The translations under genes and the position numbers were made by a program. Under the pieces are notes generated by a model, which ran no database searches, was not told the origin of the DNA, and saw only the letters and a program-made list of their open reading frames with translations. From a phage: a stretch of DNA of 49,119 bases. The stretch lies in the sequence record PZ465523.1; one strand, written 5' to 3'. Position 1 is the stretch's first letter, and each line of letters starts with the position of its first letter. Shown here in pieces: positions 4,764-41,181 of the stretch.

Positions 4764-4837
4764 ACGGCACAAATAGCTAAACAAATAATTAATGAGGTGT
4801 TATAATGCACCTCACACACCAATCAGGAGAAGTTAAG

Positions 4838-5434
4838 ATGCAACTATCACCAGAAACCAACGAAATCCTTCCGGCTCTGTTCAATGCTCGCAACAAATTC
4901 GCGAAAGCAAAGAAGGATGCAAAAAACAATCACCTGAAAAACTCTTACGCAACGCTTGACGCAATGATGGCGGCAGTTAGCCCGGCGCTCACTGATAACG
5001 ATATTATGATCCTGCAATCAATGCTGGACACCAGCACGGAAACGACTTTCCATCTTGAGACGATGCTGATTCACAAATCCGGGCAGTGGGCTAAATTCTT
5101 CATGATGATGCCGATTGCAAAACGAGATCCGCAAGGAGTAGGTTCCGCAATGACGTATGCGCGACGTTACTCATTAGCCGCAGCGCTTGGAATTAGCCAA
5201 AGTGACGACGACGCGCAGCTTGCGGTGAAATCCGTCAAGGACTGGAAAAAAGAACTTGATGCGTGTGAAGATATCGAATCACTGAAAGAGGTATGGGCTA
5301 ACGCTTACCGCCAGACGGACACGGCGAGCAAGTCAATCATCCAGGATCACTACAACGCATTGAAGGCTAAGTTTGAGATCGGTAAAGCTCGCGGCATTCG
5401 CCCGGCGCAACCGGAACAGAAAAAAACAGGTTGA
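4838..5434 (+). CDS. erf: ERF-family single-strand annealing protein
   Basis: GSAMTYARRYSLAAALGI matches the ERF signature; start chosen at ATG after RBS CAGGAGA. Confidence 0.7.
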   Translation: MQLSPETNEILPALFNARNKFAKAKKDAKNNHLKNSYATLDAMMAAVSPALTDNDIMILQSMLDTSTETTFHLETMLIHKSGQWAKFFMMMPIAKRDPQGVGSAMTYARRYSLAAALGISQSDDDAQLAVKSVKDWKKELDACEDIESLKEVWANAYRQTDTASKSIIQDHYNALKAKFEIGKARGIRPAQPEQKKTG

Positions 5435-12337: not shown

Positions 12338-12585
12338 TGAACGAGAAAATGATTCCTGTTAAGTTAACAGATCAAGGTTTATGGCTACTTTATCGAGCTA
12401 CGTGCTGCGAAATTATGGAGCGAAACGGATTGACTCAGGATGTTATTGGTTGCGATCTGTGGGAGTTCACTAGTTCTCTTGATATGTCTTTCGATGAGAT
12501 AAAAAATGAACATATAGAGAGTTGGCCTTCAATTATCCAGAAAGACGTAGAGGAACTTAAAGCAGATACGATCGCGCAGCACTAA
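12334..12585 (+). CDS. Hypothetical protein
   Basis: ATG overlapping Dam stop; stop codon lies inside the next box. Confidence 0.5.
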   Translation: MMNEKMIPVKLTDQGLWLLYRATCCEIMERNGLTQDVIGCDLWEFTSSLDMSFDEIKNEHIESWPSIIQKDVEELKADTIAQH

Positions 12586-12651: not shown

Positions 12652-12861
12652 ATGGCACGCATTAACGCAAACTTTTTCAATATCGCTCAACAGTCAGCAA
12701 AAATGGCTGTTCATATCACCAACAAGAAAGGCGGTAACTTTGATTGGGATATTGCTATGAACTTCCTTAAAATGGCTTATTACCTATGCTCAGTCAAAGA
12801 TGTTGAGTGTTTTATTGAAAGCGTGGAGAAACTAACCAATGCTGATAAAAAAACAAGGTAA
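12652..12861 (+). CDS. Hypothetical protein
   Basis: RBS GAGGAA; ORF-track ORF. Confidence 0.5.
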   Translation: MARINANFFNIAQQSAKMAVHITNKKGGNFDWDIAMNFLKMAYYLCSVKDVECFIESVEKLTNADKKTR

Positions 12862-13111
12862 ACGAGAGGTTTGGGAGCACGCGAAGGAATGCGGAATATC
12901 AGACGATATAGCACTAATAGCAAAATATTTCGATATAAAGGATGTTAGCATCATCTCAAACGGAAAGATTTCATTTATGGAAGATATGCCGAGAAAAATG
13001 CATAGAGTGCCAGCCACCCCATCACTTGAGTTTTATCGTGAAGAAGGAAAGAGAATTGAGCGAGAACGAAAAAACGCAAAGAACAACAAGCCTTCCAGGC
13101 TTAAATATTAA
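12839..13111 (+). CDS. Hypothetical basic protein
   Basis: Lys/Arg-rich C-terminus; overlaps frame of 12942..13343. Confidence 0.45.
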   Translation: MLIKKQGKREVWEHAKECGISDDIALIAKYFDIKDVSIISNGKISFMEDMPRKMHRVPATPSLEFYREEGKRIERERKNAKNNKPSRLKY

Positions 13112-13343
13112 CTCAGATGACTACCAGACAATATGGATTGGGAAAAAGCAGGTTAAGCAAATCCCTTTCTCTGACTGGTTGCCACCTGACTTTGTTAATG
13201 TGCTTTGCACTATCGGTATCGAGCAGGAGTTGCATATAGGTTACTACTCACCAGGCAGAAACAGTATGATGCTTGAGGTTGACGGAAAACTTGTTGAGTT
13301 TAAACATGCTGATCTAGGATTCTGGTTAAAGGCTGTGGCATGA
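12942..13343 (+). CDS. Hypothetical protein; only the part after 13111 looks protein-like, start unresolved
   Basis: Frame has no ATG after 13111; possible +1 frameshift fusion with 12839..13111. Confidence 0.35.
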   Translation: MLASSQTERFHLWKICREKCIECQPPHHLSFIVKKERELSENEKTQRTTSLPGLNINSDDYQTIWIGKKQVKQIPFSDWLPPDFVNVLCTIGIEQELHIGYYSPGRNSMMLEVDGKLVEFKHADLGFWLKAVA

Positions 13344-20005: not shown

Positions 20006-20569
20006 TCAGGATAGCTTTCGCGCTTCATCAATGATAACAGGTTCGAGACGCTCAAGTCGAACGCGGAACGTGTTCATAAATCCTTCGTTATTCTTCAATA
20101 GCTCGAAGGCGTCTGTTGCCTCAATGGCGCTATTTCCCATGTAGGCAACTACGCTCTTTTGCGTCTTGCGTGAGATCGCCACCACGCGGTAAATATTATC
20201 ACTCATACAATGCCTCCTTAACACGGTGCGCAATGCAGGAATTGACGGTGATTGAGTAGTTTGCCACGCCCATAATGCAATATTGCCAAGCTCGGTACGC
20301 ATTGATGGATTGTTAAGCTGGATTATCGTCTCTCCAGTATCTTTATCTACGAAGCGAGACACGCCCAAATGGTCAACCACGCGCGTTACGCGGTTCACGC
20401 ACTCCATTGCATCACTTACGCCGTAATAAGCGCTCAGAGCGGCTCTCACGGCCTTCTCTTGCTTGTTGTAAATCTTGCGCGCTATGTTCTCGATCGCAAT
20501 CTGCTCTTTTTCGTCAGTCTGTATTGCCGTGCTTGCTGAGAAGTCCAAGTCAATGAACTGCTTAAACAT
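20006..20569 (-). CDS. Hypothetical protein (187 aa)
   Basis: Start at ATG 20569 after RBS GAGGAAAG, downstream of box promoter at 20601..20645. Confidence 0.55.
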   Translation of the reverse strand: MFKQFIDLDFSASTAIQTDEKEQIAIENIARKIYNKQEKAVRAALSAYYGVSDAMECVNRVTRVVDHLGVSRFVDKDTGETIIQLNNPSMRTELGNIALWAWQTTQSPSIPALRTVLRRHCMSDNIYRVVAISRKTQKSVVAYMGNSAIEATDAFELLKNNEGFMNTFRVRLERLEPVIIDEARKLS

Positions 20570-20600
20570 GATTCTTTCCTCGTTTGCTGTTGATGGGATG

Positions 20601-20645
20601 ACTATACCAGCCATCCCGGATGCGCGTTTAGCAAAAAGTGCTATC
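20601..20645 (-). promoter_or_regulatory. Box-type promoter: GATAGCACTTTTTGCTAAA, 22 nt, TATAGT
   Basis: Hairpin GGGATG...CATCCC overlapping the -10. Confidence 0.55.
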
Positions 20646-20646
20646 C

Positions 20647-20751
20647 TCAGCGACCAACTGCATCCATAATGATTAAGAACATGATCGCGACCAGGCATCC
20701 TGACAGAGAGAAAAGCACCGATCCAATTGCATAATTAAAAAACTTTGCCAT
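20647..20751 (-). CDS. Small membrane peptide (34 aa)
   Basis: MAKFFNYAIGSVLFSLSGCLVAIMFLIIMDAVGR; RBS GAGGG; stop abuts box. Confidence 0.45.
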   Translation of the reverse strand: MAKFFNYAIGSVLFSLSGCLVAIMFLIIMDAVGR

Positions 20752-26254: not shown

Positions 26255-26473
26255 ATGGCTACTATCATGACAGCAGAAGATGCAGCACGCGACGCAGTGG
26301 AAGGGATGCGCCCAAATAGCTCCAGAATCGCCCACTACTACAAATCTGATGTGTCGGCAGTGCAATTGGTCCATGAGATTTTAAGGCTACCACAAGTCGA
26401 TTCAGCGCGCGTGGTGACGTGCTTAAAAAATTATTTTTGCATCACTATTAAAACGAATAGCACGAATTGCTAA
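26255..26473 (+). CDS. Hypothetical protein (72 aa)
   Basis: ATG start; C-terminus NSTNC encoded by the box. Confidence 0.45.
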   Translation: MATIMTAEDAARDAVEGMRPNSSRIAHYYKSDVSAVQLVHEILRLPQVDSARVVTCLKNYFCITIKTNSTNC

Positions 26474-26500
26474 AACCTATCAAGGGGAATGCGCTATGAT
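26456..26500 (+). promoter_or_regulatory. Box-type promoter: AATAGCACGAATTGCTAAAA, 22 nt, TATGAT
   Basis: Hairpin GGGGAAT-gcgctatg-ATTCCCC. Confidence 0.55.
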
Positions 26501-26530: not shown

Positions 26531-26890
26531 ATGAAACACTTAATTTGCATTGAAACGCCTAACGATGAATACACTCTTCACGGTATCGGAATGTTCAAAG
26601 GTCACTACATGACAGCAAGCATTCATGATGCGCGACTATGCGATGGCGATCTGATGATTATATCAAAAGAAGTAAATCCGTACATTATGCAGAATCTTGG
26701 CAATAACGAATATATGGCATACGGCTGCAACGCCGTGTACAAGCATATCAAGATCCGCAAGCGTGTCGTGCGTGCATTCAAGAAGATTGCAATGAAATAC
26801 TGGAAGATGAGCAAGAAGGACGCCGGACGCTGGCGCGCAATGTTGCTGACTCGTACTTCTATCGTAACGGTGAGTCCCGCTACTTCCTGA
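26531..26890 (+). CDS. Hypothetical protein; C-terminal region may continue in another frame
   Basis: RBS CGAGGAA; alternative frame 26707..26976 encodes a more protein-like tail ending SCW. Confidence 0.45.
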   Translation: MKHLICIETPNDEYTLHGIGMFKGHYMTASIHDARLCDGDLMIISKEVNPYIMQNLGNNEYMAYGCNAVYKHIKIRKRVVRAFKKIAMKYWKMSKKDAGRWRAMLLTRTSIVTVSPATS

Positions 26891-26974
26891 TCGATGAAAT
26901 TATGGAAAGCTACGGCGGCGACTTCAGCCAGTGTAGCTTTGACGATTGGGCTGATTATGAGATCAGTTGCTGGT

Positions 26975-27019
26975 AATAGCACGAATTGCTAAAACTTGCT
27001 CAAGGGCATTTGTTAGAAT
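26975..27019 (+). promoter_or_regulatory. Box-type promoter: AATAGCACGAATTGCTAAAA, 22 nt, TAGAAT
   Basis: Hairpin AAGGGCATT...AATGCCCTT. Confidence 0.55.
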
Positions 27020-27907: not shown

Positions 27908-28476
27908 AAACAGCTATCATTTTAAACGGCGCACCTAGAGCGGGAAAAGACACTATCGGATGCATCCTGGCTGACACTTACGATCACGTAGCGCTCCGCA
28001 GCTTCAAGGCTCCAATGTTTGAGATTGCCCGGGCAATCCTGGGTGAAGCTAACTACGAGTATTTCATGTTCTTGTATGATGACCGTCGATATAAAGAAGA
28101 GCCAGCATCAATCCTGAACGGTAAAAGCCCGCGCCAGTTTATGATCTGGATTAGCGAGGAAGTCATCAAGCCGCAGTTCGGAAATCGCTTCTTCGGTATG
28201 CGAGCGGAAAGCGAGGTGAAAGAGTCGAACTCCCTTTCGGTATTTACTGATGGTGGATTCAAAGACGAAATCTTGCAGATGATTGAAGGTGATATCCAAG
28301 TCAAGCTATGCCGCATACATCGCAACGGCTGCAACTTCGATAACGACAGTCGAGATTATATCTACTTGGATGATATGATCGGTGTCAACGGTTATCAGGA
28401 ATGTGATTTCTTCTCTGTCGAAGGTCATCCAGAAATTACCGCTCAGCACATAGCCGCCACGTTCATCAATAAATAG
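27904..28476 (+). CDS. P-loop nucleotide or polynucleotide kinase
   Basis: Walker A NGAPRAGKDT near N-terminus; stop TAG inside box. Confidence 0.6.
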   Translation: MKTAIILNGAPRAGKDTIGCILADTYDHVALRSFKAPMFEIARAILGEANYEYFMFLYDDRRYKEEPASILNGKSPRQFMIWISEEVIKPQFGNRFFGMRAESEVKESNSLSVFTDGGFKDEILQMIEGDIQVKLCRIHRNGCNFDNDSRDYIYLDDMIGVNGYQECDFFSVEGHPEITAQHIAATFINK

Positions 28477-28516
28477 CACGAATTGCTAAAACGTCGATGG
28501 GGTGATTTGATATAGT
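28472..28516 (+). promoter_or_regulatory. Box-type promoter: AATAGCACGAATTGCTAAAA, 22 nt, TATAGT
   Basis: Read directly; kinase stop embedded. Confidence 0.55.
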
Positions 28517-40122: not shown

Positions 40123-40510
40123 GTTATCAGCGGCGGCGCGAGCCGCCTTTCTGTCGAAGTATAGAGACTTTCCTCACTACATGGAAAACAGGAACTTTAC
40201 ACCGCCGAAGGATGGCGGAATGTGGCTAAGGTTCAACTACATTGAAGGGGATACGCTTTATCTATCAATTGACAGAAAGTGTAAATCTTACATCGCAATC
40301 GTTCAGATCGGCGTAGTGTTCCCTCCAGGCTCCGGCGTTGATGAGGCAAGATTGAAAGCAAAAGAGATTGCCGATTTTTTCAAAGATGGTAAAATGCTTA
40401 ACGTTGGTTATATTTTTGAGGGTGCAATCGTGCATCAAATTGTTAAACATGAAAGCGGATGGATGATTCCAGTTCGTTTCACGGTACGAGTAGACACAAA
40501 GGAGACTTAA
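40112..40510 (+). CDS. Tail completion-like protein
   Basis: Position immediately before major tail protein. Confidence 0.45.
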   Translation: MHYELSAAARAAFLSKYRDFPHYMENRNFTPPKDGGMWLRFNYIEGDTLYLSIDRKCKSYIAIVQIGVVFPPGSGVDEARLKAKEIADFFKDGKMLNVGYIFEGAIVHQIVKHESGWMIPVRFTVRVDTKET

Positions 40511-40512
40511 TT

Positions 40513-41181
40513 ATGCACTTACCAAATGGCGCGCAAATTTTCGTGGAAACCTCTCGCGGAGAAGAGATTGAGGCGACCGCTGTCACTAACGCAAAAAATC
40601 CTGTTGCTACAGTTGCATCTAAGGGCGACATGGCAAAAGGTGATTACGTTATTGTAACTCAGTCAACTTGGGCTAAGATGGTTAGTCGGGTATTGATTGT
40701 TACTGACGCTCAGGGAACAAGAATTACTCTTGCTGGAATTGACACTACTGATACTCTTGTTTTCCCGGCTGGCGGTAAGATGAGCTTTGCAAAAGTTACT
40801 GGCTGGACTGAGATTCCTTGCGTACAGGAGATTGGTCAGGACGGCGGCGAACAGCAGTACTACACTTATCAGTGTTTGTCCGACGATAAGGAGCAGCAGA
40901 TCCCGACATTTAAATCTGCGATCTCACTAACTTACACCTTCGCGCACGAATTTGATAACCCGATCTATCCAATTCTGCGTAAGCTAGATTCTTCTGGTCA
41001 GGTAACTGCGGTTCGTATGTATGTTCCAAAAGCGAACGAGATGCGCATGTGGGCTGGAATCTTGTCTTTTAACGACATTCCATCTACGCAAGTAAACGAA
41101 ATGGAAACAGTACAACTCGCCGTATCCCTGAAAGGTGATTTTACTTTCGTCTCATCCACTCTGGCATCTCCAGGAGCCTAA
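40513..41181 (+). CDS. Major tail protein
   Basis: 222 aa; RBS AGGAGA; followed by terminator and tail chaperone genes. Confidence 0.65.
   Translation: MHLPNGAQIFVETSRGEEIEATAVTNAKNPVATVASKGDMAKGDYVIVTQSTWAKMVSRVLIVTDAQGTRITLAGIDTTDTLVFPAGGKMSFAKVTGWTEIPCVQEIGQDGGEQQYYTYQCLSDDKEQQIPTFKSAISLTYTFAHEFDNPIYPILRKLDSSGQVTAVRMYVPKANEMRMWAGILSFNDIPSTQVNEMETVQLAVSLKGDFTFVSSTLASPGA

Follow-up and report, generated by a model that had tools for sequence, protein, structure and literature searches.

Known programmed ribosomal frameshifts, such as the −1 shift at A AAA AAG in E. coli dnaX, the +1 shift at CUU UGA in prfB, and that of the phage tail-chaperone genes G/GT, combine a conserved slippery motif and stimulators with a downstream frame that has no start of its own, and the arrangement is kept in homologs. 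The two sites described here have two overlapping frames on one mRNA in common with these systems, whereas the other hallmarks are absent. For the first site, a closely matching arrangement is found in phage T1, where the curated record AY216660 already annotates an overlapping-gene layout: CPTT1_062 (40239..40511) and CPTT1_063/Orf17 (40456..40743) are the same two genes, each with its own ribosome binding site (RBS). T1 shares with our sequence the out-of-phase overlap of 56 nt (13056–13111 in our coordinates), the TTG start of the downstream gene, and the RBS preceding it, and at ~90% nucleotide identity the two differ here through point substitutions alone, with no indels. For the second site, the described counterpart is T1 gene 65 (T1p65; ST65, YP_003879; phrog_10642), the ortholog of positions 26531..26976, of which our copy has lost one G and is cut to 119 aa.

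Both sites lie in a phage genome sequence of 49,119 nucleotides (PZ465523.1), the whole of which we refer to as the window. Database comparison identifies the window as the genome of a Tunavirus (phage T1-like); among the records it matches, Shigella phages phiL, pSf-2, and Shfl1 rank best, at ~96–97% identity. The region of the first site matches 61 phage records and that of the second site 70, and all of these are Tunavirus or close Drexlerviridae. The original prediction had proposed unresolved frameshifts in two early genes. This holds for the second site, which carries a frameshifted gene, but not for the first, where the two frames are separate overlapping genes. The comparison with homologs, named beforehand as the observation that would count against the proposal, did so at the first site, where the homologs are separate genes with their own starts; the homologs of the second site are one uninterrupted ORF. 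Our main reading, to which we give a probability of about 0.9, is therefore that the first site comprises two ordinary overlapping genes and the second a one-base deletion in an accessory gene, with no recoding at either. The two sites are unrelated phenomena, both ordinary, and the layout of the first was already known from annotation. Coordinates of the features are collected in Table 1.

Table 1. Features and alignment segments at the two sites, in window coordinates; phases are codon positions in the frame named
Feature	Coordinates	Strand	Detail or evidence
T1 Orf18-like gene, 69 aa, phrog_2180	12652..12861	+	annotated in Shfl1, T1, and others
Shine-Dalgarno GGAG for ORF A	12825..12828	+	sequence; matches RBS annotated at 40225..40228 in T1 AY216660
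ORF A, 90 aa, ATG start, phrog_2817	12839..13111	+	phase pattern, homologs, CPTT1_062 in AY216660
Alignment segment	12862-12941		variable columns at ORF A phase 1, 2, 3 = 1, 1, 16
Stop-free +1 stretch, opening with a fortuitous ATG at 12942	12942..13055	+	frame-B phase pattern, chance test
Alignment segment	12942-13055		variable columns at ORF A phase 1, 2, 3 = 0, 2, 15
Putative Shine-Dalgarno AAGGA for ORF B, 7 nt before TTG	13044..13048	+	matches RBS 40443..40446 in T1
ORF B, T1 Orf17-like, 95 aa, predicted TTG start, phrog_4596	13056..13343	+	start conservation, frame-B constraint, profile
Alignment segment	13056-13082		variable columns at ORF A phase 1, 2, 3 = 4, 2, 5 (mixed)
Alignment segment	13083-13111		variable columns at ORF A phase 1, 2, 3 = 5, 2, 2 (= ORF B phase 2, 2, 5)
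Alignment segment	13112-13178		variable columns at ORF B phase 1, 2, 3 = 7, 7, 14
Alignment segment	13179-13340		variable columns at ORF B phase 1, 2, 3 = 9, 9, 28
Frameshifted T1p65-like gene, phrog_10642 family	26531..26890	+	101 native + 18 aberrant residues, then stop
GG where all homologs have GGG; 1-nt deletion after or within the Trp101 codon	26832..26833	+	alignment
Native C-terminal remainder, out of frame (homolog residues 102-148 + stop)	26834..26976	+	homologs 148 aa

On comparative evidence, ORF A is a real, conserved small-protein gene. In the Tunavirus alignment it keeps 98% amino-acid identity at 92–94% nucleotide identity, and it is this difference, together with a substitution pattern that follows frame A, that identifies it as a real gene. 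Homologs were found across Drexlerviridae, and the phrog_2817 profile matches it with E = 1.5e-32. Despite this strong conservation, ORF A is unannotated in RefSeq T1 (NC_005833), Shfl1, LHE71, and ISF001. Its start is overlapped by the last 23 nt of the Orf18-like gene upstream. Within that overlap lies a run of seven A residues (12846–12852), invariant in the first 14 Tunavirus sequences aligned. This run was rejected as a slippage site, since ORF A needs no slippage, being equipped with an ATG and a GGAG of its own, and since the overlap of the two genes occurs in distant relatives without the A-run.

We then located the boundary between the two frames by substitution pattern, in an alignment of distinct Tunavirus sequences, 14 at first and 24 later, which contained zero indels across the first site. 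Across the 24 sequences, substitutions track frame A up to about position 13082; from about 13083 on, they track frame B. The stretch 12862–13055 as a whole has 1, 3, and 31 variable columns at ORF A phases 1, 2, and 3, respectively. Phase 1 of ORF A is phase 3 of ORF B, and the counts over 13083–13111 therefore indicate constraint in frame B. Further downstream, over 13179–13340, the variable codons among 14 sequences divide into 20 synonymous and 9 changing when read in frame B; read in frame A, the corresponding counts are 2 and 26. Both the phase distribution and the synonymous and non-synonymous counts thus show purifying selection acting on both frames, each within its own stretch. The first nine codons of ORF B (13056–13082) show no frame-B constraint, with 0 synonymous and 5 changing variable codons, and so the substitution pattern alone would bound the point of entry into frame B to 13056–13091. 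We take frame B to turn coding at some point from 13056 to about 13083.

Within these bounds lies an in-frame TTG at 13056, preceded by a Shine-Dalgarno (SD) sequence, which had been overlooked in the earlier reading. We predict that ORF B initiates at this TTG behind its own SD. Of the 24 genomes, 23 share this TTG; the remaining one, Shigella phage vB_SflS-ISF001, has ATG instead, and there the change costs ORF A a non-conservative Ile to Asn replacement inside its conserved EEGKRIE motif. The SD reads AGGGA in half of the relatives. The EEGKRIE residues of ORF A also restrict what can vary in the SD and at two of the three bases of the TTG, so that the invariance of these positions, taken alone, weighs little. 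What was found at the first site nonetheless corresponds to an overlapping gene, with a downstream start and SD inside the upstream gene, and with homologs that have starts of their own. The 85-position profile of phrog_4596 aligns to residues 12–94 of ORF B (E = 5.5e-37), and the 95-aa form starting at TTG ~13056 is the one annotated in T1, Shfl1, SA32RD, phiL, Lg3, EF3-1, SA12KD, LHE71, and ISF001. Other upstream candidates were rejected: GTG 13038 is GCG in 6 of the 24 genomes, and ATG 12942 and TTG 13026 sit where frame B is unconstrained.

The same pair of genes could be followed outside the T1 cluster. NBD2_65 and NBD2_66, together with the IMG/VR loci L061–L063, are homologous to A and B and stand in the same order upstream of a SbcD-like exonuclease gene. 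In L061–L064, which include Vilniusvirus NBD2, ORF B is 37–40% identical to ours. ORF A there ends in ...AAG AAA TGA and ORF B starts at the embedded ATG, reading MNLPGLN..., so that the stop and start overlap by 4 nt (ATGA), and the B frame carries several stops upstream. In the T1 cluster, by comparison with this NBD2 type, A extends further, and B is 12 residues longer at its N-terminus and has a TTG in place of the ATG. In a further relative, L022, ORF A is 70% identical, a stop interrupts the B frame early in the overlap, and ORF B opens with an ATG of its own, placed four codons ahead of the LPGLN motif. Other Drexlerviridae (L023–L033) have ORF A followed directly by the SbcD-like exonuclease gene, without ORF B. 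A separate observation concerns Shigella phage Sfin-2 (L071, MK972831, 39088–39590), a partial-genome record in which two 1-nt deletions, one in an A-run and one in a G-run, fall in ORF A/B and yield an artefactual hybrid coding sequence of 132 aa. We rejected this hybrid as a natural A-B fusion, given that it takes two separate 1-nt deletions and that sibling phage Sfin-1 has no length difference there.

In the arrangement we favor, ORF A and ORF B would be separate genes on one early transcript. Initiation on ORF B would occur independently, at TTG 13056 and via the AAGGA at 13044–13048, both of which lie within the 3′ end of ORF A, and translation of ORF A may expose or feed the start of ORF B. 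The suggestion of small, translationally coupled genes with non-canonical starts was thus apt for the first site insofar as ORF B has a TTG start inside ORF A, while the coupling itself is something we infer. The overlap also contains a perfect 6-bp hairpin (13088–13102, AAGCCT-TCC-AGGCTT) just before the ORF A stop. The conserved SLPGL codons of B account for its sequence, its variable positions are B-synonymous sites, and no clear compensatory changes were seen in it among the aligned Tunavirus sequences. The hairpin is probably incidental.

At the second site, the homologs identify what has changed. At the position of the deletion the alignment reads GCTGGGCGCGC in the homologs and GCT-GGCGCGC in the window. 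The window protein accordingly has its 101 native residues followed by RAMLLTRTSIVTVSPATS and a stop at 26888–26890, which confirmed the predicted aberrant tail of this frame. The original prediction was also right that another frame (26707..26973, with its stop at 26974–26976) encodes a plausible C-terminus: it reads ...ARNVADSYFYRNGESRYFLIDEIMESYGGDFSQCSFDDWADYEISCW, the C-terminus conserved among the 148-aa homologs. The base missing from the stretch at 26832–26833 is present in 27 of 27 matching phage records. All 14 IMG/VR loci examined match residues 1–148 or 3–148 in one piece, and among 5.8 billion collected proteins, 23 of 23 protein clusters are full length, at 144–162 aa. Shfl1p17 is likewise a 148-aa protein and aligns with the phrog_10642 profile at 148 of 148 positions; the match of T1p65 to this family has E = 1.1e-84.

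Collectively, these alignments present the second site as a plain one-base deletion and not as recoding. It is a single-base homopolymer indel relative to all homologs, and its repair restores a conserved full-length ORF. Loss of one G from the GGG run would shift the frame after Trp101, bring in a stop 18 codons on, and remove the conserved C-terminus of 47 residues. In pSf-2 there is nothing between gp53 and gp54, that is, the T1p65-like gene is absent, and because pSf-2 does without it the gene can be taken as dispensable.

The alternative that survives best concerns the origin of this deletion. The missing G could be a homopolymer sequencing or assembly error, in which case the real phage would have an intact 148-aa gene. 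A genome-wide indel scan of the window against Shfl1, T1, and pSf-2 found two further window-unique single-base homopolymer indels in coding sequence, at 5420 and 20269, and the same explanation would extend to both. The first is a run of seven A residues (5420–5426) near the 3′ end of the gene for an Erf-like ssDNA-annealing recombinase (ORF 4805..5434). Shfl1, T1, and pSf-2 have A6 there, 23 of 23 records have one base fewer than the window, and the window copy ends ~67 nt earlier than its relatives. The second is a CCC at 20269 within the minus-strand ORF 20006..20698, where Shfl1 and pSf-2 have CCCC and 38 of 38 records have one base more. This shift appears to fuse a T1p01-like ORF with the downstream T1p02-like ORF into the 230-aa ORF 20006..20698.

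An error is made credible by the fact that all three coding indels fall in homopolymers (A6 to A7, C4 to C3, and G3 to G2), that each is unique among 23–38 relatives, and that one strikes the conserved Erf-like recombinase. Such errors do exist in records of this group, the two deletions of Sfin-2 being the case in point. Against this, two of the three runs are short (3–4 nt), all three indels lie at 0.68–0.90 of gene length, and the T1p65-like gene is the dispensable one noted above. Furthermore, window-unique small indels number ~6 in intergenic sequence and 3 in coding sequence, in a genome that is nearly 90% coding (a figure estimated, not measured). This intergenic excess resembles the outcome of selection on genuine indels more than that of random error. 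On balance we lean slightly toward a genuine mutation at the second site, and an error remains a serious contender at somewhat less than even odds. The earlier suggestion of indel errors was therefore correct in the sense of a single-base indel, be it an error or a real mutation. In either case, the T1p65-like, Erf-like, and T1p01/02-like genes of the window merit a frameshift flag.

The remaining alternatives fare far worse. At the first site, a programmed +1 (or −2) frameshift within 13056–13091 could produce an A-B fusion, instead of or beside free B. In its narrower form, it would apply to the T1 cluster, whose B no longer has the ATG used by other lineages: some ribosomes would shift +1 in 13056–13091 and make the fusion beside a TTG-started B. 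Such a shift would suit a B frame that is +1 relative to A and open through the overlap, as well as a B that lacks an ATG in 23 of 24 Tunavirus genomes, and the switch of selection from A to B near 13083 is also what a shift site there predicts. No slippery motif is kept in 13056–13091, however: the window has CGA AAA AAC where T1 has AGA AAA TCC, the sole A-run (13069–13074) is not conserved, and 13072–13076 is hypervariable. Codon 13056 varies only from TTG to ATG. Five other lineages have their own ATG for B, with stops upstream in the B frame, and many relatives have A without B. We consider both forms of this explanation very unlikely. The hallmarks of programmed frameshifting, namely a slippery site, a missing downstream initiation signal, and a conserved two-frame layout, were found at neither site, and the option of programmed frameshifts raised at the outset is unsupported at both.

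Next, the open frame that had drawn attention to the first site could be read as a longer ORF B of 133 aa, starting at ATG 12942 and overlapping ORF A by 170 nt, as annotated in the GenBank records of phiD2-2 and S2_02. The +1 frame relative to ORF A does stay open as described, stop-free from 12942 to the stop at 13341–13343, and the ATG and open frame occur in 24 of 24 genomes. The ATG is fixed, though, by the conserved KDVS codons of ORF A, and the AAGG before it abuts it with zero spacer. Every variable codon over 12942–13055 changes the frame-B amino acid (0 synonymous and 14 changing, against 11 and 3 in frame A, among 14 sequences), and across 24 sequences 15 of the 17 variable columns fall on the second codon position of B (B-phase 2, 15, 0). 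In L022 and the more distant L061–L064, the B frame carries stops over this upstream stretch. We also estimated how readily such a frame arises by chance, holding protein A fixed and resampling its synonymous codons by the window's own codon usage. The probability of no stop in the +1 frame was 0.51 over 12942–13055 and 0.16 for the whole overlap, and +1 runs free of stops over 56 codons or more occur 38 times in the other long ORFs of the window. The open +1 frame over 12942–13055 is no more than chance. By its substitution pattern this stretch is read as not coding in the +1 frame, and the lack of stops in the 114 nt of B frame upstream of TTG 13056 would be happenstance. The 133-aa form is accordingly given next to no weight.

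Equally improbable is a short ORF B confined to the 54 aa from TTG 13179 (phrog_38834), or begun at some other non-canonical start after the ORF A stop, a form annotated in pSf-2, SH2, and IME167 and made attractive by the lack of a canonical ATG nearby. The original prediction had held that there is no start after 13111. In-frame TTG 13179 and GTG 13200 do exist, but neither is the real start, the conserved protein beginning upstream of them. TTG 13179 is CTA in two of the 24 genomes and has no SD, the LPGLN...IPFSDWLP motifs upstream of it are kept at 37–40% identity inside the ATG-started ORFs of relatives, and constraint in frame B is already seen over 13083–13178.

Finally, a programmed −1 frameshift at the second site, restoring a full-length T1p65-like protein, would draw on a downstream frame that is intact and still codes for the conserved C-terminus, yet it can be dismissed as barely conceivable, as CGC TGG CGC contains no slippery heptamer and the two-frame state is unique to the window genome, with every homolog a single ORF.

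The findings bear mainly on annotation quality and contain no new biology. Tunavirus entries in GenBank and RefSeq are inconsistent here, with three starts in use for ORF B (for 133, 95, and 54 aa) and ORF A left out of several. At the first site, the comparative evidence backs the 95-aa TTG form of ORF B over the other annotated lengths, and it backs ORF A as a real, widely conserved gene. As to function, ORF A, ORF B, and T1p65 all give significant, full-length matches to PHROG profiles, and all three families are without an assigned function. Against Pfam, the three gave sub-threshold matches only (DUF7334 at 17 bits with a cut-off of 27, and CBM65_1 at 15 with a cut-off of 25), and searches of all PDB chains with ORF A, the ORF B profile, and T1p65 returned nothing at E ≤ 1. 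An AlphaFold2 model of a full-length T1p65 homolog, built from a 22-sequence alignment, was of low confidence (mean pLDDT 57.9, pTM 0.46). Outside the 2004 T1 genome paper, a search of the literature on Tunavirus frameshifts and on the early genes of phage T1 and Drexlerviridae returned no account of the genes described here.

A 16-nt motif, GCACGAATTGCTAAAA, was also noted around the second site. It occurs exactly at 26460–26475, 26979–26994, and 28476–28491, with 12 further copies, for example at 12579, 14567, 21041 (minus strand), and 24169. At up to three mismatches, the window holds 15 copies against 0.77 expected. In the three copies inspected (12579, 26460, and 26979), the motif stands after the stop codon of a gene and before a hairpin, and its placement suggests a boundary element of promoter or terminator type. 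The T1p65-like gene, absent from pSf-2, has an exact copy on either side, and the element may also mediate the gain or loss of gene cassettes.
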